NCBI GenBank assembly: GCA_044226015.1
Contig: JBGAHS010000005.1
Span: 128,001-192,000, forward strand
Direction of reading: 5' to 3'
DNA length: 64,000 nt
Source of the DNA: Candidatus Obscuribacteraceae bacterium
GTDB lineage: Bacteria > Cyanobacteriota > Vampirovibrionia > Obscuribacterales > Obscuribacteraceae
The position numbers were made by a program, and so were the translations under genes. Positions 10,883 to 19,455 of this stretch are shown here, in pieces. How positions within the stretch are numbered: position 1 is the first letter of the stretch; every line of letters starts with the position of its first letter. The notes beneath the pieces are model-generated. The model saw only the letters and a list, made by a program, of their open reading frames with translations, was not told the DNA's origin and made no database searches.

Positions 10883-12691
10883 TTAGTGAGAAGATGGCAA
10901 TCCTGCCATCTTCTGGTAGGCACCGCGCTTGCCACCAGTCAAAGTTAGCACTGCGTCCATTTTGACTATTTGATTGACAATTTTTTGATCGTAATCATTC
11001 TTACTTTCGTAGATCTGGCGCATAATCGGACTGTACTGAAGAAGTGAAGTCAGCTCAAACTCGCTCTTATTCACGATAACTGAGCCCTGCGCTGTTTCGA
11101 TGCTTCGAACGTTTCTTCGCGAAACACCATCGTTTTTCATCTCACTGAAGGCCGCAGGTACTGAGTTCGCAATTACGAGTTCTTCTCCCGCAGAGCAATC
11201 AATACTTCGCGATTTGATTTTGGCGGTGACACTCTTGCTTCCAATTTCACGCAAATTTCGGATAACAGTAGCATTCTTTCGTGCAATAACTTGAACGATA
11301 GCTCCATCATCGATGTTTACGAAGCACTCGTTGATTTTGACACTCAAGGGGTCTTTCGCAACTAAAATCGCTTCGCCTGAACTTAAGTCGACTCGTCCGT
11401 ACTGATCAATTTCTAGTTTGGCTGATTCCAGATATTTTGCTGCGCCATTTTGCAACCAGGTAGTTTTGAGTGCATCGGCTACCCGCGGGAATGGAATAGG
11501 ACCTCTCTCATGCACAGTTCTTGCTGCAGGCACGAAATAGCGTGAGTCAAGTGACTCTTTGTAGCTTGGTGTCTTCTGATTTGCGATGGTATCTCTCTGA
11601 AGAATTTGCCTTCTGATTTCATCGCGCCGCATTTCTGGGGTGATACCAAACTGAGAAAACATACTCTTGTAAGCAGTCGCCATCTTCGCATTTGCAATTG
11701 GCGGGTCAATTGCTTTTAGCTCAGTAATAAAGTTGCTTGCATCACTATCTAAGTTGCGAGTTGCAATATTTAGTTCAACGGCCGGTGCCTGAAGTGGTTT
11801 ACTTGCTAATAATTCTTTTGAGCCGTTGTTGCTAACATAGTCCGAAGCACCAGAGCTAGCAACTGTGGACTCGTTGACCTTAATTTCCTTGCCCAGTGCA
11901 ACTTCCTGCTTTGTGTTGTTGCCTTTGTAGGCAAACTGAACTTCGCTTGCGGTTCCGTACAAACTACTTATACGAACACGGTTGAACCAGGTTTGTTCAA
12001 CTGCCGCAATAGAATTTGGCTTGACTTCAACAGCACCGTATTTGGTGAGTACTTTTACAGGTTTGACACCAGATACGACCCACATGGTTCCGCATCTCAG
12101 TACCATAGTCGATGGAGCACAGGCGTTGAACATCGTTCCGGATGACACCATCAGTAAACCGGATGGATCGCCGGGTACAACGAAAGATTGACCTGTTTTA
12201 TGACCCACCATCCACGGTATTTCATCAGGTGACTGCTTGCGAAGCGCAAGCTGTTCGAACTGTTTCTTGTCTGGACGCCTTGTTGGAATTGGAATGTTTA
12301 TTCTGATTGTGTCGGTCGGGGGCAGCAAAGTCTGTGGAATGTTCTGAGTGGTAGGCAAATTAGTTATCGGAACCCCACCAACTCTTGCGTTGTTGAGAAA
12401 CTCCTTAAGCTCTGGTGATGCCTGGTAGTAAGGAAACATCGTCATTCCAGCGATGTTGTAGGTGTAGGTATCTTTTGGCAATTTAAATCTTTGCGCTGTT
12501 ATATCGGCTACCCCTGTCGGCAGAACCACCATTCGCCGATTAGGCTCGGGATAACCGGGAATGTTCTTCCCTTGATTTTCGAAGTTGGGAAAGAACTGTT
12601 CTGCATTTGCGACGCTACACGTGGCGGCGAAAGCAATTAGCAATGCACCTGTCGCGCGTAGTTGGCGAACTTTATTTTGAGTTGAACTCAT
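10883..12691 (-). CDS. Exported hypothetical protein with two FecR-like beta-rich domains
   Basis: Signal peptide ending ANA|E; two beta-rich segments (LRCGTMWV...VKVLTKYGAVEV; LSSGEAIL...LSVKINECFVNI); the FecR likeness is by eye. Confidence 0.75.
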   Translation of the reverse strand: MSSTQNKVRQLRATGALLIAFAATCSVANAEQFFPNFENQGKNIPGYPEPNRRMVVLPTGVADITAQRFKLPKDTYTYNIAGMTMFPYYQASPELKEFLNNARVGGVPITNLPTTQNIPQTLLPPTDTIRINIPIPTRRPDKKQFEQLALRKQSPDEIPWMVGHKTGQSFVVPGDPSGLLMVSSGTMFNACAPSTMVLRCGTMWVVSGVKPVKVLTKYGAVEVKPNSIAAVEQTWFNRVRISSLYGTASEVQFAYKGNNTKQEVALGKEIKVNESTVASSGASDYVSNNGSKELLASKPLQAPAVELNIATRNLDSDASNFITELKAIDPPIANAKMATAYKSMFSQFGITPEMRRDEIRRQILQRDTIANQKTPSYKESLDSRYFVPAARTVHERGPIPFPRVADALKTTWLQNGAAKYLESAKLEIDQYGRVDLSSGEAILVAKDPLSVKINECFVNIDDGAIVQVIARKNATVIRNLREIGSKSVTAKIKSRSIDCSAGEELVIANSVPAAFSEMKNDGVSRRNVRSIETAQGSVIVNKSEFELTSLLQYSPIMRQIYESKNDYDQKIVNQIVKMDAVLTLTGGKRGAYQKMAGLPSSH

Positions 12692-12945: not shown

Positions 12946-14616
12946 TTGATGAAGACCTGGACACTAGCTCTATTACTTTTGGCTAATTTCTTTTCTGCGG
13001 TTTCAGGCGCCGAGGAGAGCATTGAGAATTCTGCCAGTTCTGCTGAATCCAGGCAGAAGTCAAGCGAACTTAGATTCCAAGTGTTTTTGCCACCAGTGCT
13101 TGAGAAGGAAAAGAACGTTTGGGGTAGCATTTATGATCAGTTTGGAAACATAGCGCCTCAGCAAAAAATCGTTGTAAATGACATCGAGGTCGAGAGTGAT
13201 GATTACGGTTCATTTCATTTTCTCGCTCCGGTGGCTGACAAGGTCGATGTTCATATAGCTGGCATCGCTGGCAGTGACCTGTCTTATTGGAGCACCGCCA
13301 GTGGTTTGCTTGTCTCTGACCAGAGTGCAGTGGATTTGGTCGACAGGTTGGACTCAATGCCTGTGTTCTCTGGCAAGGAGCCGGTGATTGCGCTCGCACC
13401 ATCCGTGGTGGAAACGCAGCAAACCATAGTGGTGCTTGGAAAAAATTTCAGTGGTAAACAAGGCGACGACGACCTCGAAGTTGCTGACCGTAACGCTGAT
13501 ATTCTTGCTGCCTCACCTCGAAGCCTTGTTGCGGTTACTAGCAAATTTATGAAAATGGGACCGATGAAGGAAATGCGTGTTTCCAGCCACGAACAAACAT
13601 CACTGCCAGTCGAGCTAGATGTATGCAAAGTGTCCATAAAAAACAATTCTCAACCGAATGGCAAGGCTGCTGTGCGAATAGATGTACTCGGCACAACATT
13701 ACCTGCGGTGATTGCTCTCACTAACAATTCGCGCTCTGATTTGCGATTTGGGGGCTGGAAATTAGGCAGTCAAAATCTCTTCCTGAGCCAGGGCGGTGTG
13801 CAGAATGCTTTTATGGTCGAGCCCAGCGTGGCTTTATCTTCCAACGAGTTTGCTGCTCATCTGGTGTCAAATGGACTTTTTGACGCGTATTCGATGAAAA
13901 CCAACCGTAATCTTCTTTCGAAAAGTGTATACGACACTGAAGAACAAGCTGAAATCATTCGCTTGAAAAAACGTGTGATTGGACTTGAGTCTCAACTCAA
14001 TTCGCTAAATACCCAAAGGGCTGAAGAATCAAAGTCTGCAAAACTCGACCTTAATGAAGAGAGCGACCTCGAATTGAAGAGTAAGGCATTGAGCTCACGC
14101 ATCTTTAGAATAAACAGAATGCTTCAGGCACGGCGAACTGTTTTGGAGTCTTGCGGTTACAGCGACTATGACAAGCTTATGGATCTCGCCACCAGTGGTG
14201 GTGCGAGCAGTCTTGATGCTTTAGCATCAGACAAGGCTCTAGGTTTTACAGAATCGCGATTGCTGAGAATCGTAGCTAAAAGGGCAGCCGAAGAGAAGAA
14301 GCAATCTGAGATGGAAGCTAATGCAGCATGGACTTACAAATACAATTCTCCGGATAAGACTATGCTGAATTCTTACAGAAAGAAATATGGAAAACGTGGA
14401 TATGTACCTCCGCCTCCAAATATGGCGACCCTAATTCCTCCACCTGCACCATTCAAACCTGATTTAAAGGATATGGGACCATTCTTGATGGACCTCAATG
14501 TTGCACCGCCTGCGCCACTTTCTTCAAAAGCAAAAAGCAGCAAAGGTAAGCCGGCTACATCTGCTTCGGAAACTCGCGTTAATTCCAAGCAATCTAAGAA
14601 AAAAGCAAGAAGATGA
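12946..14616 (+). CDS. Exported hypothetical protein (Ig/IPT-like segment, coiled coil, Pro/Lys-rich tail)
   Basis: 556 aa ORF; signal peptide; 'IVVLGKNFS' IPT-like motif; stop overlaps the next ATG (ATGA). Confidence 0.75.
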   Translation: MMKTWTLALLLLANFFSAVSGAEESIENSASSAESRQKSSELRFQVFLPPVLEKEKNVWGSIYDQFGNIAPQQKIVVNDIEVESDDYGSFHFLAPVADKVDVHIAGIAGSDLSYWSTASGLLVSDQSAVDLVDRLDSMPVFSGKEPVIALAPSVVETQQTIVVLGKNFSGKQGDDDLEVADRNADILAASPRSLVAVTSKFMKMGPMKEMRVSSHEQTSLPVELDVCKVSIKNNSQPNGKAAVRIDVLGTTLPAVIALTNNSRSDLRFGGWKLGSQNLFLSQGGVQNAFMVEPSVALSSNEFAAHLVSNGLFDAYSMKTNRNLLSKSVYDTEEQAEIIRLKKRVIGLESQLNSLNTQRAEESKSAKLDLNEESDLELKSKALSSRIFRINRMLQARRTVLESCGYSDYDKLMDLATSGGASSLDALASDKALGFTESRLLRIVAKRAAEEKKQSEMEANAAWTYKYNSPDKTMLNSYRKKYGKRGYVPPPPNMATLIPPPAPFKPDLKDMGPFLMDLNVAPPAPLSSKAKSSKGKPATSASETRVNSKQSKKKARR

Positions 14617-17600
14617 CCTTGTTCAACCCGAAGTTGAGAGTCTTCCACCAAGGTTTGATTCTGGTGGGACTGCCTCTTATTCTCGAACTTTTACTTATCG
14701 GAAATCTCTGGAACTTACTTTTGCATGCCGATAGAGAGCTTGCAAGAGAAAGTCGTTATAGGCAATTCTCAGCTTTGGGCAGCCGTTTGATGACTCTTAC
14801 TTATGAGGCACCATATCTTTTGATTACTTCGCTGCAAGGTGGTGGCAATCGCTACTTTCTTGCTTACGAGCGTGACGTAGAGCAAGTGAAACAATTGAAG
14901 AGTCAGGCTTTGGCATTAGCAAAAGATGACCCACTAATAGAAGACGTTTCTGTTGAATTAGAAGAAAGTTTGTCAGTTATTCTAGGCATTTGTGACACCC
15001 TCGCAGAGGCGAAGAGAAGTGGAAGTTCACTCAACTTGATTCACGAACTTCCTCGTATTCAGCAGCGATTCAACAACTCGAAAAATCTCGCGATTGAGCG
15101 AATCGCTATAATCGTCAAAATCGGACAACATACTACAGCTGAATCGGAAAAGCGAATTCGTCGGATGCGCAGTCTGATGAGTTGGATTCTGCTCTTTGGC
15201 GTCTTCTCCAATATCTTATTGGGTGTAGCATTACTTGCATTTTTTCGAAAGCGCATTCTTGAGCGCATCAAAGTTATTACCGAAAATACTCTGCTATTGT
15301 CTCAAAAGAAAGAACTGCACAAACCCCTCGGTGGTGGCGATGAGATAGATCAATTAGATCGCGCATTTCACCTGATGAATACTGAATTGATCGAGGCATC
15401 GAGGCGAGAAACATCTCTGTTTAACAACGCCAGTGACGTTATATGTGTTCTTGACTCAAACGCTCAATTCTTAAAAATAAACTCTGCCTGCGAACGATTG
15501 TGGTTTTACAAATCAGAACAGTTACTTAGCCATTCACTGCTCAATCTTTTGGATGAATCGGATAAAGCATCCTTTGAAAAGTTGTTTGCTAAATGCAAGG
15601 CATCTCCAGAACCAGTTAATTTAGAGATAAAGATCAAGAGGAACGATGAATCTGTTATTGAGACTTTGTGGTCGACATTCTGGTCCGTTCCTGAACAGTG
15701 TCTGTATTGCGTAGTGCATGATATTAGCGAAAGAAAACAAGTCGAGAGAATCAAACAGAAATTTATTGCGCTAATTAGCAAGGAATTGAAAAAGCCCCTA
15801 TCGTCAATAAGTGATTCCCTGAGTGGACTATTGATTCCCACAGCTAAGCTATCTGACCTTGCGCGTAGCAAATTGATAAATACGCAAAGCAATCTGAAGC
15901 GCTTACTTCAATTGGTCAGTGAGTTGCTTCAAATCGCTGAAATGGAGAGCGCAGCAAAGATGCAATTGGAGTTTGCTGACTTTGATATCTTTGAGATTGT
16001 CAGTCAGGCTGTTTCTGATGTCGAAGGACTGGCTCAGGCGCGGAACATTCAGCTAATTGTTGAAGTGAAATCTTCCAATTGTAATTGCGATAAAAACAGA
16101 ATAGTTCAAGTGCTGGTGAACCTATTATCGAATGCGATAAAGTTCTCGCCAGAGTCTTCGACTGTTACCGTAAATGCGGTTTTAGAAGGTATAGCTCAAA
16201 AAATATGCGTAATAGATTCGGGCAGAGGTGTTCCAGAGTCACATCGTCAGACGATATTTGAAAAGTTCAAACAAGTAGAGGCAAGTGATGGAAGACCTAA
16301 AACAGGAACTGGTCTTGGTTTGCCGATTTGCAAAGATATCGTAGAAGCTCATTCTGGCAGCATTGGTGTTAAAAGTAATGAAGGTCAAGGAAGTGTTTTC
16401 TGGATAACGCTTCCACTAACTGAGCTAGAAAGAGAACGACTGCGGGCGCAAAAAGAGAATCTAATTTCAGCTGCCGATGAAAGCATGCCATTAGCGGGGA
16501 AATCTACTGCGCAGGCTGACTTGGGTAAGATTACAAAGCCATCGGAGAAAAAGAGATTTCAACTCAAGCTCATACACAAAGGTGTTTTGCTGGTTGGTAT
16601 TCCGATTTTATTTGAGAGCGCTTTCGTTGGCGCACTTGCAGTGCAACTGACGCAGTCTGAGCAAATGCGCCAGAGCGAGTTAAAGCAAAGAAAGATTGCC
16701 GCGTATTCCAACAGGATGCTGCAAGGCTTCATGAAAGCCGCATTATTGATTACTCTGACAAAAAGTCGCGACAACTGGGTTGCCTTTGAAGCAGTCTACA
16801 AGGAGATTCTTCATTACCGACAGACCATCAAAAAGTTGCTTGCAAATGACCCTGCTGTTGCGCAAGACTTTGAAAATCTGGAAATATCAAATAAGAAGTG
16901 GGATGAATTTTACGTCGCTGCAGCAGAGAGAATGAAGGAGGGTTTCACTGAAGTAAACTCAAGTGACACCATGGATAAACGGGCAATTTTACTTCCGATA
17001 ACAGCTAACATTGCACGGAAGGTTTTACGTCTTGTCGAAGATGTGGAAAAGCGCGAGTTCGAGCCAGCTAAGCAGGCTGCCCAAAGAAAGAAACTAGGGT
17101 TGATACTGTTGGCGGGGCTATGCAGCAATTTGATGCTGTCAGTATTGCTTGCTCTGTATTTCTCCAAAGACATTACGTCACGACTTGCCCAACTAGCAGA
17201 TAACGCTGAGCGTCTAGCTAACGATAAACCTTTGAATACTCCATTGAGTGGTACTGATGAAATTGCAAATTTAGATCGTGTGTTTCATGAGACTTCAGAA
17301 GCTGTGCAAGCTGCTCGCAAGAAAGAACGTGCTGTTTTTGATAATGCTCAAGATTTGATTTGTTCGATCGACGAAAACGCAAAATTCTTGAGTCTAAATC
17401 AAGCATGCGCACGGCTGCTCGGCAGTGATGCGGCAAGTCTTAAGGATAAAGTTCTCTATGAATTTGTTTCACCAAACGAGAAAGAGAAGATGCAAGCGGC
17501 TCTTTCCATCAGTGATGCAGGTACACAAAGTCACTGTGTTATTGAAAGCAGTCTATCTAGAAGTGATGGAGCTTTGATTTACTTGCAATGGTCTATCTCA

Positions 17601-18341
17601 AAAGCACCCCAGGAAAATCAGGTCTATTGTGTTGCACACGATATCACTATTAGAAAGGAATTCGAACAACTAAAGCAAGAGTTTCTCGCTATGGTCAGTC
17701 ATGACCTTCGCTCGCCACTAACCTCTATTTCTGCAATGTCTAAATTGGTTAGCACGGGCATGTTTGGTGGCATTGGCGATAGAGAGGACGAGCTTCTAGA
17801 AGCAATTGAAGTTGAATCGAGCAGGCTCATTGAACTCATCAACGACCTGCTTGATATTGAAAAATATGAGGCGGGCAAAATGGAGCTGCTTCTAGAAGAG
17901 GTTGATTTGAATGCATTTCTTCGCGAAACCTGCATTAGCCTCTTGGGGCGCTCAAGGCTGAGCTTCAACTTTGCCGCCGAGCACCATTTTGTCGAAATTG
18001 ATAAAGCACGGTTTTCCCAGGCAATCTCAAATCTGCTCAAGTTCTTTTTGCAAATCGATCCGCAGGCGAGAGTAACTGTTAGCTCTAGGGTGCAGCAAAA
18101 TGCTCTAGTTCTGTTATTAAGTTCTAGCGGTACGCAGCTTTCAGAGGAAGCCTGCAGTGCGGCGTTTGATCGGTTTCGTGATGAGAGCATCGAATTCAGT
18201 ATTGGCTCAGGGCTGGCTTTGCCAATCAGCCAGCGCATCATACAAAGTCATAGAGGCCGCATAAAGCTAAGCAGCGACGCTGATGCTCATATGAATGTTT
18301 TTGAGATAACGCTGAATTCTAACTTCTCCAGCGAAGAATAG
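14613..18341 (+). CDS. Tandem double sensor histidine kinase: 2 x (TM-sensor-TM-HAMP-PAS-DHp-CA)
   Basis: Module 1 H-box SKELKKPL with intact NAIKFS/DSGRG/GTGLGL; module 2 H-box SHDLRSPL with degenerate CA. Confidence 0.93.
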   Translation: MTLFNPKLRVFHQGLILVGLPLILELLLIGNLWNLLLHADRELARESRYRQFSALGSRLMTLTYEAPYLLITSLQGGGNRYFLAYERDVEQVKQLKSQALALAKDDPLIEDVSVELEESLSVILGICDTLAEAKRSGSSLNLIHELPRIQQRFNNSKNLAIERIAIIVKIGQHTTAESEKRIRRMRSLMSWILLFGVFSNILLGVALLAFFRKRILERIKVITENTLLLSQKKELHKPLGGGDEIDQLDRAFHLMNTELIEASRRETSLFNNASDVICVLDSNAQFLKINSACERLWFYKSEQLLSHSLLNLLDESDKASFEKLFAKCKASPEPVNLEIKIKRNDESVIETLWSTFWSVPEQCLYCVVHDISERKQVERIKQKFIALISKELKKPLSSISDSLSGLLIPTAKLSDLARSKLINTQSNLKRLLQLVSELLQIAEMESAAKMQLEFADFDIFEIVSQAVSDVEGLAQARNIQLIVEVKSSNCNCDKNRIVQVLVNLLSNAIKFSPESSTVTVNAVLEGIAQKICVIDSGRGVPESHRQTIFEKFKQVEASDGRPKTGTGLGLPICKDIVEAHSGSIGVKSNEGQGSVFWITLPLTELERERLRAQKENLISAADESMPLAGKSTAQADLGKITKPSEKKRFQLKLIHKGVLLVGIPILFESAFVGALAVQLTQSEQMRQSELKQRKIAAYSNRMLQGFMKAALLITLTKSRDNWVAFEAVYKEILHYRQTIKKLLANDPAVAQDFENLEISNKKWDEFYVAAAERMKEGFTEVNSSDTMDKRAILLPITANIARKVLRLVEDVEKREFEPAKQAAQRKKLGLILLAGLCSNLMLSVLLALYFSKDITSRLAQLADNAERLANDKPLNTPLSGTDEIANLDRVFHETSEAVQAARKKERAVFDNAQDLICSIDENAKFLSLNQACARLLGSDAASLKDKVLYEFVSPNEKEKMQAALSISDAGTQSHCVIESSLSRSDGALIYLQWSISKAPQENQVYCVAHDITIRKEFEQLKQEFLAMVSHDLRSPLTSISAMSKLVSTGMFGGIGDREDELLEAIEVESSRLIELINDLLDIEKYEAGKMELLLEEVDLNAFLRETCISLLGRSRLSFNFAAEHHFVEIDKARFSQAISNLLKFFLQIDPQARVTVSSRVQQNALVLLLSSSGTQLSEEACSAAFDRFRDESIEFSIGSGLALPISQRIIQSHRGRIKLSSDADAHMNVFEITLNSNFSSEE

Positions 18342-19455
18342 AATCTGGAACAGGGTTCTTGAATGGACGCTTTTCTCTCTTTGCGTCAGCCCATTCCTTC
18401 TTAAGGCGCAAGTACCAGGCGCCAGGCGTGCCGGCGTCTTTTATGGTTGGAACCAGTTTTGGTTTCAGCTTCAAGAGGGGCGCCTGTCTGAGCGCAATAG
18501 ACTGATCTTGCCCCAAAAACACAGTGACGAAATATTGGATGATCGGTTCGACGAACTTGGTGCCCGGAATCGTCCAATAGGTCATGTGGTTCAATTCTGT
18601 GTGCGTTTCATCGATTGGAGTTAAGCAACTAATTCCCGCGATAAGTGTGCGTCCCGCAAAAGTGAGGTACTCTCTGCGGCAGCCGGGCAAGCGAAATCCA
18701 AACTCATCCTCGATATATTTTCCAAAGAGTTTATACACGATGGAATGTGCCGATGGTCTATGTTTCACCACCGTCCAGCCGGTTGCATCCGGCACATAGT
18801 GTTTGGTTTTCTCTTTCAACTGTTTAGCTGATCGCCACCACCATGATTTATGTATATAAGGAACGTGCGCAGGGTCGATTAAAGCCAGGGCGGCATAGTC
18901 GATATGCGTTGGAAGTTGCAACGTGGTGCAAGCGCTTTCGTAAAGCATATCGTTCAATCCCGGTGCTTCCGGAACCACGTCTGGAAGATCTTCCTTCTCG
19001 TCGCCGAAGTAAACCCAGATTGTGCCTTTCACTTCGCGCACAGGATATTTTGGAGTTTTGATTTTGCAAACAGGAAATTTTTGGTCTGAGCAGAGCGATG
19101 GAATTTCGGTACAAGTTCCAGCACTATCGAATTTCCAACCATGGAAGGGGCACATTACTTCTTTGCCGTCGAAGTGCCCATCACTCAGTGGAACGGCCTG
19201 GTGAGGACAAATATCCTTCAGCGCAAAAACTTTTCCGTCACTGCGTCTTCCAATGAGAACTGGCTCACCAAGCATGGTCTTGCTTACCATCTGCCCGGGC
19301 TTCAATCTGCTGGACGGTATTGCAAAATACCACATATCTCGCAAAAACCATGTGCCGAGACCGCCCATTTGCGTTGGATTTACAGACTCAAGATCGGAAT
19401 AATCTTGTTCGTCTCGCTTATCAGCTGAAGTCTGACAGTTTAGTGTGCTTGTCAT
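18319..19455 (-). CDS. Rieske non-heme iron oxygenase, alpha subunit (VanA/PAO-like)
   Basis: CPH...CPFH Rieske ligands; DPAHVPYIH and distal QD mononuclear iron ligands. Confidence 0.92.
   Translation of the reverse strand: MTSTLNCQTSADKRDEQDYSDLESVNPTQMGGLGTWFLRDMWYFAIPSSRLKPGQMVSKTMLGEPVLIGRRSDGKVFALKDICPHQAVPLSDGHFDGKEVMCPFHGWKFDSAGTCTEIPSLCSDQKFPVCKIKTPKYPVREVKGTIWVYFGDEKEDLPDVVPEAPGLNDMLYESACTTLQLPTHIDYAALALIDPAHVPYIHKSWWWRSAKQLKEKTKHYVPDATGWTVVKHRPSAHSIVYKLFGKYIEDEFGFRLPGCRREYLTFAGRTLIAGISCLTPIDETHTELNHMTYWTIPGTKFVEPIIQYFVTVFLGQDQSIALRQAPLLKLKPKLVPTIKDAGTPGAWYLRLKKEWADAKREKRPFKNPVPDSILRWRS

Follow-up and report, generated by a model that had tools for sequence, protein, structure and literature searches.

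How a polypeptide with two sensor-kinase units, each lacking what the other has kept, might work as a histidine kinase is the question raised by a locus of Candidatus Obscuribacteraceae bacterium (contig JBGAHS010000005.1, positions 128,001 to 192,000 of the forward strand), a stretch of 64,000 nucleotides that is hereafter called the window and whose own numbering is used throughout. The gene concerned, P0001 (14613..18341, + strand), is a single open reading frame (ORF) of 1242 aa with zero internal stops, and it encodes two full sensor-kinase units that are reciprocally degraded. An earlier interpretation (the sequence-only reading) had described a repeated series of transmembrane segment (TM), sensor, TM, HAMP, PAS, domain for dimerization and histidine phosphotransfer (DHp) and catalytic and ATP-binding domain (CA), and had proposed that the CA of half 1 (CA1) phosphorylates the His of half 2. 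The duplication is confirmed by two Pfam matches apiece for HisKA, HATPase_c and PAS and by four TM-like stretches found in a hydropathy scan (residues 14-32, 192-210, 658-676 and 830-848), and every coordinate given at that time is correct. As to function, it is likely that the protein is a single-chain pseudo-heterodimer in which CA1 would phosphorylate His1030 in trans at one site, serving a distant regulator; the motif losses across its relatives, the existence of a mirror-image class and a divided DHp surface support this proposal.

The first half, on the + strand like all parts of the gene, opens with TM1, a four-helix-bundle sensor 1 and TM2 (residues 12-211; 14646..15245), delimited by hydropathy, by AlphaFold2 helices and by a match to the HK9 sensor 3va9. 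HAMP1 and PAS1 follow (residues 212-372; 15246..15728), the former assigned by homology to HAMP2, whose own Pfam match is below cut-off. In DHp1 (15735..15947) alignment and codon check place Lys390 at 15780 instead of the H-box His, as the sequence-only reading had it, while helix 2 retains Asn427 and Arg430; in CA1 (16089..16421; Pfam, alignment and codon check) the N (Asn507), G1 (Asp535), F and G2 boxes are all intact. A linker of low pLDDT (AlphaFold2's local confidence score) then leads back to the membrane (16422..16562; AlphaFold2 and homologue alignment), the span 603-655 varying from 42 to 124 aa among homologues. The second half consists of TM3, a four-helix-bundle sensor 2 and TM4 (residues 653-850; 16569..17162; hydropathy and AlphaFold2), HAMP2 and PAS2 (residues 851-1012; 17163..17648; Pfam), DHp2 (17655..17873; Pfam, alignment and codon check) with His1030 (17700), Asp1031, Ser1034 and Lys1084, and CA2 (18000..18317; alignment and codon check). 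In the latter the ATP motifs are lost, with Phe1144 for the N-box Asn and Ser1171 for the G1 Asp, and the hydrophobic anchors Phe1185 and Leu1201 are retained; the codons thus agree with the canonical His and degenerate CA formerly attributed to this half. By the criteria of class I sensor kinases, the DHp His is found only in half 2 and the full N/G1/F/G2 set only in half 1, and neither half joins a His and a working CA in one DHp-CA unit.

The gene is not an assembly artefact, since an independent 2016 activated-sludge contig spans 14400-18500 unbroken, with 61 substitutions and 0 indels, and 92 full-length homologues were recovered; an origin by frameshift or misassembly was ruled out on these grounds. 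Among the sequencing runs listed as carrying the locus, none was of RNA. Nor is the half-specific loss of motifs due to chance, as can be seen from 99 aligned rows, in which the half-1 His is retained 23 times, the CA1 Asn 98 times, the half-2 His 98 times and the CA2 Asn 24 times. Among the best 25 of 81 matches P0001 reaches the cut-off of no NCBIfam kinase equivalog (WalK, 339.6 vs 725; PnpS, 326.4 vs 400; PhoR, 269.2 vs 334.2).

Reciprocal loss across the family

The double kinases compared here were collected from three homologue searches (best 120 listed each), the paralogues of this genome and further genome loci. Six two-core proteins of unrelated hybrid or soluble types (by Pfam) and two proteins whose first DHp was missed by the profile (P0116 and P0149) were left out before counting, and 187 TM-type doubles were reduced to 173 by clustering at 90% identity (14 near-duplicates dropped). 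Under a strict rule for a working CA, 109 of the 173 have a His-less, ATP-binding half followed by a His-bearing, ATP-less one, 22 are mirror forms and 39 are intact, the remaining 3 being intermediates that retain both His after losing one CA. None of the 131 His-less halves has lost its own CA, and all 131 face a degenerate or deleted partner CA. A later search of the whole library gave 107 new identifiers, 63 of them multi-core (4 repeating earlier rows), which under the same CA rule comprise 35 P0001-like, 8 mirror and 13 intact proteins, 4 that have lost one CA, 2 in which both CAs fail and 1 four-core protein of another design; loss of His and CA in the same half was again absent (0/43). 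If each CA acted in cis on the His of its own half, same-half losses of just this kind would be expected, and the cis model was rejected on the counts of 0/131 and 0/43. A survey of double kinases had been proposed as the test that could refute the sequence-only reading by revealing random loss; what it returned, with no same-half losses and a mirror class, was reciprocal loss.

One-site doubles have arisen several separate times. Two opposite polarities alone imply at least two origins, and a quick IQ-TREE analysis of 62 chosen rows of the 173, based on HAMP and DHp columns with the H-box and CA columns excluded, places 9 changes among the three states, its starred branches forcing at least three for the P0001 polarity and at least six for the mirror one; the exact number is soft because this tree is unrooted, long-branched and without bootstrap. 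A FastTree of all 173 rows agrees in outline, and the mirror protein P0081 is nested in a supported clade of intact doubles. Identity between the two halves is 40% in intact doubles (n=22) and 30% in the P0001 class (25 of 72 examined). A fixed order, with the CA always lost before the His, fits the fused intermediates and is contradicted by a pair of separate genes in genome G137 (L162:3018-6079, beside a divergent regulator), where gene 1 has lost its His and the CA of gene 2 is still near-intact.

The named homologues belong to Candidatus Obscuribacterales or Melainabacteria. Of the family's 104 genomes, 17, from 8 genera, have stop-free matches across both halves, and a sample of 200 genomes from the phylum's other families yielded none, with only 4 candidates scored per genome. 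This genome alone has 16 double-sensor genes, of which 14 are reciprocal: 7 with PAS domains, all P0001-like; 5 without PAS, of about 1000 aa (4 P0001-like, 1 intact); and 4 of about 850 aa with CA1 deleted (G000:C10:374995-377559, C8:228042-230612, C8:604429-606969 and C12:264098-266764), 3 with a His-less second half and 1 with both His. For the wider range, the 80 loci listed from a contig scan with generic kinase motifs include two non-Obscuribacterales ORFs with two CA-bearing cores, one with both cores intact (L039) and one with a single H-box detected (L051); neither is reciprocal, a result that says little on range. The ESM Atlas listed only single-unit kinase clusters. The one-site double kinase is a design found throughout the lineage, which has arisen repeatedly and in both polarities and far exceeds the two copies first seen.

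The same division also exists in unfused form. At G000:C8:205401-208467 (L100) two overlapping single-kinase genes encode a His-less, ATP-binding kinase and then a His-bearing, ATP-degenerate one, the second preceded by a ribosome-binding site, and overlapping split reciprocal pairs are conserved in two relatives as well (L160 in G157 and L108 in G108). In relatives of other genera, intact single kinases lie in tandem genes (L172, L173, L175, L085 and L091), alternating between two types in the first three; such arrays are the likely raw material for fusion, and the neighbours in them may possibly pair as heterodimers. Another ORF of this genome, of 1504 aa (G000:C6:370708-375222, L101), ends in DHp(His)-DHp(no His)-CA and is followed by a receiver gene; its long repetitive N-terminal region belongs to the ORF only tentatively, and its layout resembles the engineered kinase EnvZ[AAB].

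Three further loci were recorded. Three fully intact double kinases stand consecutively at L163:3585-15030 (G141). A PAS-type double at L180:1516-5277 (G137), with a degenerate CA1, has kept its second His and changed the adjoining Asp to Gly, and is en route to the mirror state. A 778-aa single-unit kinase-like protein of this genome (G000:C1:500484-502820) lacks both the His and the ATP motifs.

Proposed pairing of the two halves

The surface of the DHp is partitioned between the halves. In 72 PAS-type proteins of P0001 polarity (a set that excludes three duplicates and one truncated row), helix-1 positions His+4, +7, +8, +11 and +15 are conserved in half 2 and vary freely in half 1, where the entropy at His+4, +7, +8, +11, +14 and +15 is 2.6-3.3 bits; helix-2 residues Asn427 (94%) and Arg430 (100%) show the reverse, being constrained in half 1 and unconstrained in half 2. 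In the full classes, Thr, Ser or Asn occupies His+4 in 17/109 first halves vs 109/109 second halves (mirror, 21 vs 5 of 22), Arg occupies His+40 in 105/109 vs 11/109 (mirror, 1 vs 21 of 22; intact, 37 vs 37 of 39) and Lys occupies His+53 in 4/109 vs 94/109 (mirror, 17 vs 2 of 22). Helix-1 residues track the His half and the helix-2 Arg tracks the ATP half, and this partition recurs in the later set. According to PDB titles, the specificity of HK853 was rewired at positions 268, 271, 275, 294 and 297 around His260; the first three are His+8, +11 and +15 of helix 1 and the other two lie in the first half of helix 2, where the register to P0001 is approximate. Only one arrangement, a DHp1:DHp2 bundle with trans geometry, would yield a working face that takes its helix 1 and its helix 2 from different halves, and the conserved residues argue strongly for such a bundle and for trans transfer.

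Contacts described for CpxA can be traced on the same surfaces. In that kinase the opposite monomer offers Leu292 and Arg296 as contacts to the F-box Phe403 of the active CA, and the idle CA is anchored through Phe403 and Leu419 (PMC3904827). By residue spacing, Leu1080 and Lys1084 of the His half, each kept in 71/72 proteins, would correspond to the former pair of contacts, and Phe1185 (63/72) and Leu1201 (68/72), which the dead CA2 keeps together with its fold residues, to the latter anchors.

AlphaFold2 models suggest that the two halves pack together, both in P0001 (residues 43-1242; pLDDT 84, predicted template modelling score (pTM) 0.55) and in the mirror protein P0123 (pLDDT 81, pTM 0.57). 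By structure alignment the P0001 sensors are four-helix bundles like those of HK9 and PcaY (sensor 1 against 3va9: Z 17.0, rmsd 1.9, 127 aligned), and some single-unit relatives carry Pfam CHASE3. The NIT domain of NasR, composed of two four-helix bundles arranged like a sensor homodimer (PMC12591593), aligns over residues 1-781 of the P0001 model, spanning both sensors (243 aligned, 3.9 A, Z 19.1). In the mirror model one chain of HK853, a cis kinase according to its PDB title, aligns over 261-845 (227 aligned, 3.2 A, Z 23.4), with His260 on His274 of half 1 and the HK853 CA on half 2; chains of CusS, HprS, WalK, SrrB and AdeS likewise span both halves, and CpxA aligns inside half 2. A second look at the P0001 model gave matches within half 1 alone; an alignment that depends on order is unable to put helix 1 of half 2 ahead of CA1. 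A complex prediction with two copies of PAS2-DHp2-CA2 and one of PAS1-DHp1-CA1 gave no answer (ipSAE 0.01) and was used for neither side.

In the mechanism proposed for the single-chain pseudo-heterodimer, the halves of one chain would fold into the parallel dimer that class I kinases usually build from two chains, with sensor 1 against sensor 2, HAMP1 against HAMP2, PAS1 against PAS2 and DHp1 against DHp2. CA1 would bind ATP and phosphorylate His1030 in half 2. The opposite face would be dead, and a regulator encoded elsewhere would dock at the lone working face, built from helix 1 of half 2 together with half 1's helix 2. The retained Asp-x-x-Thr/Ser/Asn motif suggests that this face doubles as a phosphatase. 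CA2 would persist as a folded domain without ATP, probably parked against the bundle as the inactive CA is in an asymmetric homodimer; in some relatives the equivalent dead CA is deleted. Fusion of tandem paralogues would have founded the family, and one of the two sites would then have been lost, in either polarity. Pairing within one chain is put forward with moderate confidence, while two live sensor inputs, a partner of the OmpR type and a parked CA2 are offered as conjectures.

Several observations weigh against this reading or narrow its basis. The strict CA rule was set post hoc, and with the looser first rule the partner CA is lost in 129/131 cases. Two proteins of the later set (P0345 and P0380) fail the rule in both CAs while retaining both His, CA1 having Asn for the G1 Asp and CA2 being degenerate, and are exceptions to the pattern of one working CA. 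The class proportions are skewed, because the queries were of reciprocal type and the rows are related. Half 2 of P0001 itself retains the Arg at His+40, a minority state. As regards the models, both pTM values are within reach of undocked halves (ceilings 0.51-0.56 and 0.55-0.61, respectively), and pTM was dropped as proof of pairing since it fails to separate docked from undocked; pairing was judged from the first and last residues of alignments, not from coordinates, and AlphaFold2 may join the halves through their likeness to solved homodimers. Finally, pairing within a chain and pairing between chains are indistinguishable from sequence.

This last point concerns an alternative with the same DHp1:DHp2 bundle and chemistry, formed between chains in swapped dimers or chains of receptors. 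The motif and surface patterns fit it equally, the linker from CA1 to TM3 is long, variable and disordered, and separate chains are possible for the halves, as the split two-gene forms demonstrate; it is nevertheless unlikely, since a covalent link would favour the partner in the same chain, both single-chain models carry signs of packing within the chain, and seven such paralogues in one genome would invite mixing.

More improbable is a main role of the protein as phosphatase, phosphate sink or scaffold, with the CA1 nucleotide in a conformational role and His1030 loaded from a phosphorylated regulator. Regulatory kinase-like proteins are represented by RetS (PMC12189002) and DivL. Two features agree with such a role: the His half retains Asp or Glu at His+1 and Thr, Ser or Asn at His+4 (109/109), and a receiver gene lies within 2 kb at 6/18 such loci (convergent in 4 of the 6) vs 48/66 other kinase-like ORFs. 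Against it, every double but two retains one full ATP site and one His, which never share a half once a His has been lost, and the conservation of CA1 is about equal in the P0001 class and in intact doubles (mean entropy, 1.15 vs 1.05 bits).

DivL-type pseudokinases have the His replaced, the CA fold kept and a conserved regulator-binding face on DHp helix 1, and phosphotransferases of the ChpT/Spo0B type have a His-bearing DHp with a degenerate CA and are soluble, sensor-less and stand-alone. Half 1 shares the first two of these features with DivL, which ties for its top structural match (half 1 core, Z 24.1), and lacks the conserved helix-1 face; half 2 shares its DHp and CA with ChpT/Spo0B and differs in its membrane sensor, HAMP, PAS and ATP-binding half. 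That each half homodimerises, giving a tethered relay from a pseudokinase to a phosphotransferase, can be regarded as very improbable despite these resemblances in outline, since either homodimer would hold half of the working face (half 1 without the helix-1 residues, half 2 without the helix-2 Arg), P0001 has no receiver domain to feed a phosphotransferase, and the mirror class flips the whole pattern.

Genomic context

A paralogue of the same polarity, P0002 (30564..34331, + strand; 1255 aa, 41% identical to P0001), is encoded in the same window, and neither protein has a Pfam Response_reg match. No receiver gene was found within 22.4 kb of P0001; the closest, at that distance, is of the OmpR family and adjoins an ordinary kinase, which bears out the statement that the gene has no adjacent response regulator. 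Receiver proteins are encoded by 113 ORFs of the genome.

Upstream of the kinase lies a gene for a 556-aa protein (12946..14616, + strand) with an N-terminus that by eye is signal-peptide-like and with no Pfam or NCBIfam match. Its end overlaps the kinase start by 4 nt (ATGA, 14613-14616), as expected from the translational coupling to an exported protein that had been suggested. At the syntenic locus of a same-genus genome (L158), however, ORF calls give a 28-nt gap instead, so that the relevance of coupling is unsupported, and the presence of the upstream protein there says nothing specific, because the entire neighbourhood of P0001 is syntenic in that one genome.

Other genes of the surroundings were recorded for completeness. 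The products of 12946-14616 and 10883-12691 are divergent proteins with signal-peptide-like N-termini and without Pfam matches, both conserved at the syntenic G180 locus (36% and 48%). A convergent Rieske oxygenase gene (18319-19455, - strand; weak VanA_C match) overlaps the 3' end of the kinase by 23 nt, and a LuxR-type helix-turn-helix regulator, whose N-terminal part has no Pfam receiver match, is encoded 2.6 kb from P0002 (36916-37641, + strand). Elsewhere in the genome two giant ORFs (G000:C12:494476-518850, 8124 aa, and C10:380473-404661, 8062 aa) each lie within 3 kb of a double-kinase gene.

Comparison with known systems

Trans autophosphorylation and asymmetric dimers are established for histidine kinases. 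Class I HisKA kinases such as CpxA (by profile the nearest are WalK, PnpS and PhoR, below cut-off) have the same domain order and catalytic motifs as each half of P0001, and in their asymmetric active state one CA is mobile and the other parked (PMC3904827). These kinases are homodimeric, their two sites are equivalent and their asymmetry is dynamic, whereas P0001 has unlike halves in one chain and one complete site. In Mycobacterium tuberculosis HK1/HK2-TcrA, the ATP-binding and His-bearing functions are on two proteins, which are separate and small, unlike the two full receptor units in each chain of P0001.

The division of labour that P0001 would have, from its motifs, is that proposed for FasB/FasC of Streptococcus pyogenes, a heterodimer in which FasB gives the kinase domain, His246 of FasC is required and the FasC kinase domain is dispensable (PMC12675982). 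In that system FasB keeps two His and cis transfer is not excluded, and the authors put sensing in FasC alone (PMC12675982). FasB and FasC are two unfused genes beside their regulator, in contrast to the one ORF of P0001 with its receiver gene 22.4 kb off; split pairs occur elsewhere in the lineage.

Heterodimers between kinases have been called rare (PMC8971529). Pseudomonas RetS/GacS is one, formed by two unequal sensor kinases (PMC12189002), each of which also homodimerises (PMC12675982); unlike P0001, it is inhibitory and made of separate hybrid kinases. In the engineered EnvZ[AAB] (Qin et al. 2000), titled monomeric, an extra DHp in the same chain (two DHp, one CA) gives a working kinase (PMC8971529), which is artificial, soluble and sensor-less, unlike P0001; its nearest natural approach is found in the CA1-deleted mirror class and the C6:370708 ORF of this genome.

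Two kinase cores per chain are shared with two-transmitter hybrid kinases, including the fungal dual hybrid histidine kinase Tco2 (PMC3018481, PMC13452588). Of two-transmitter kinases, 96.2% carry receiver domains (PMC3018481, PMC13452588), which P0001 and P0002 lack, and a 2010 survey counted two transmitters in 2/15,704 non-hybrid kinases (PMC3018481). The excerpts of PMC3018481 and PMC13452588 hold no mention of reciprocal loss. No natural fused reciprocal kinase was found in literature searched by architecture and lineage, in which subscription journals were thinly covered, supplements excluded and most hits judged from listings.

P0001 would combine known chemistry with a quaternary design that is new, and the literature searched gives no description of it as a natural fusion. 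The stages seen comprise alternating tandem intact pairs, split reciprocal pairs, intact fusions, one-site fusions of both polarities and deletions of the dead CA. A broader view, which we advance tentatively and as slightly more doubtful than not, is that Obscuribacterales turned a homodimer into a general heterodimer design, and that the one-site receptors, joining unlike sensors, and in this class two different PAS domains as well, as a composite binding surface or two-input gate with a fixed direction, form a natural class of monomeric histidine kinases of the membrane that has yet to be described.

With 14 of the 16 double-sensor genes reciprocal here, double kinases make up a major share of signalling in this uncultured lineage, and the family offers a natural map of trans-acting DHp residues and a scaffold on which two-input sensors could be built. 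Homodimeric kinases are thought to act through a transient asymmetry, with one CA active and the other parked; in this family the asymmetry would be fixed in one chain, in both polarities and with intact sisters, and each half is mutable alone, so that the need for alternation between two sites, the role of a parked CA and the steering of one site by unequal sensors could be tested.

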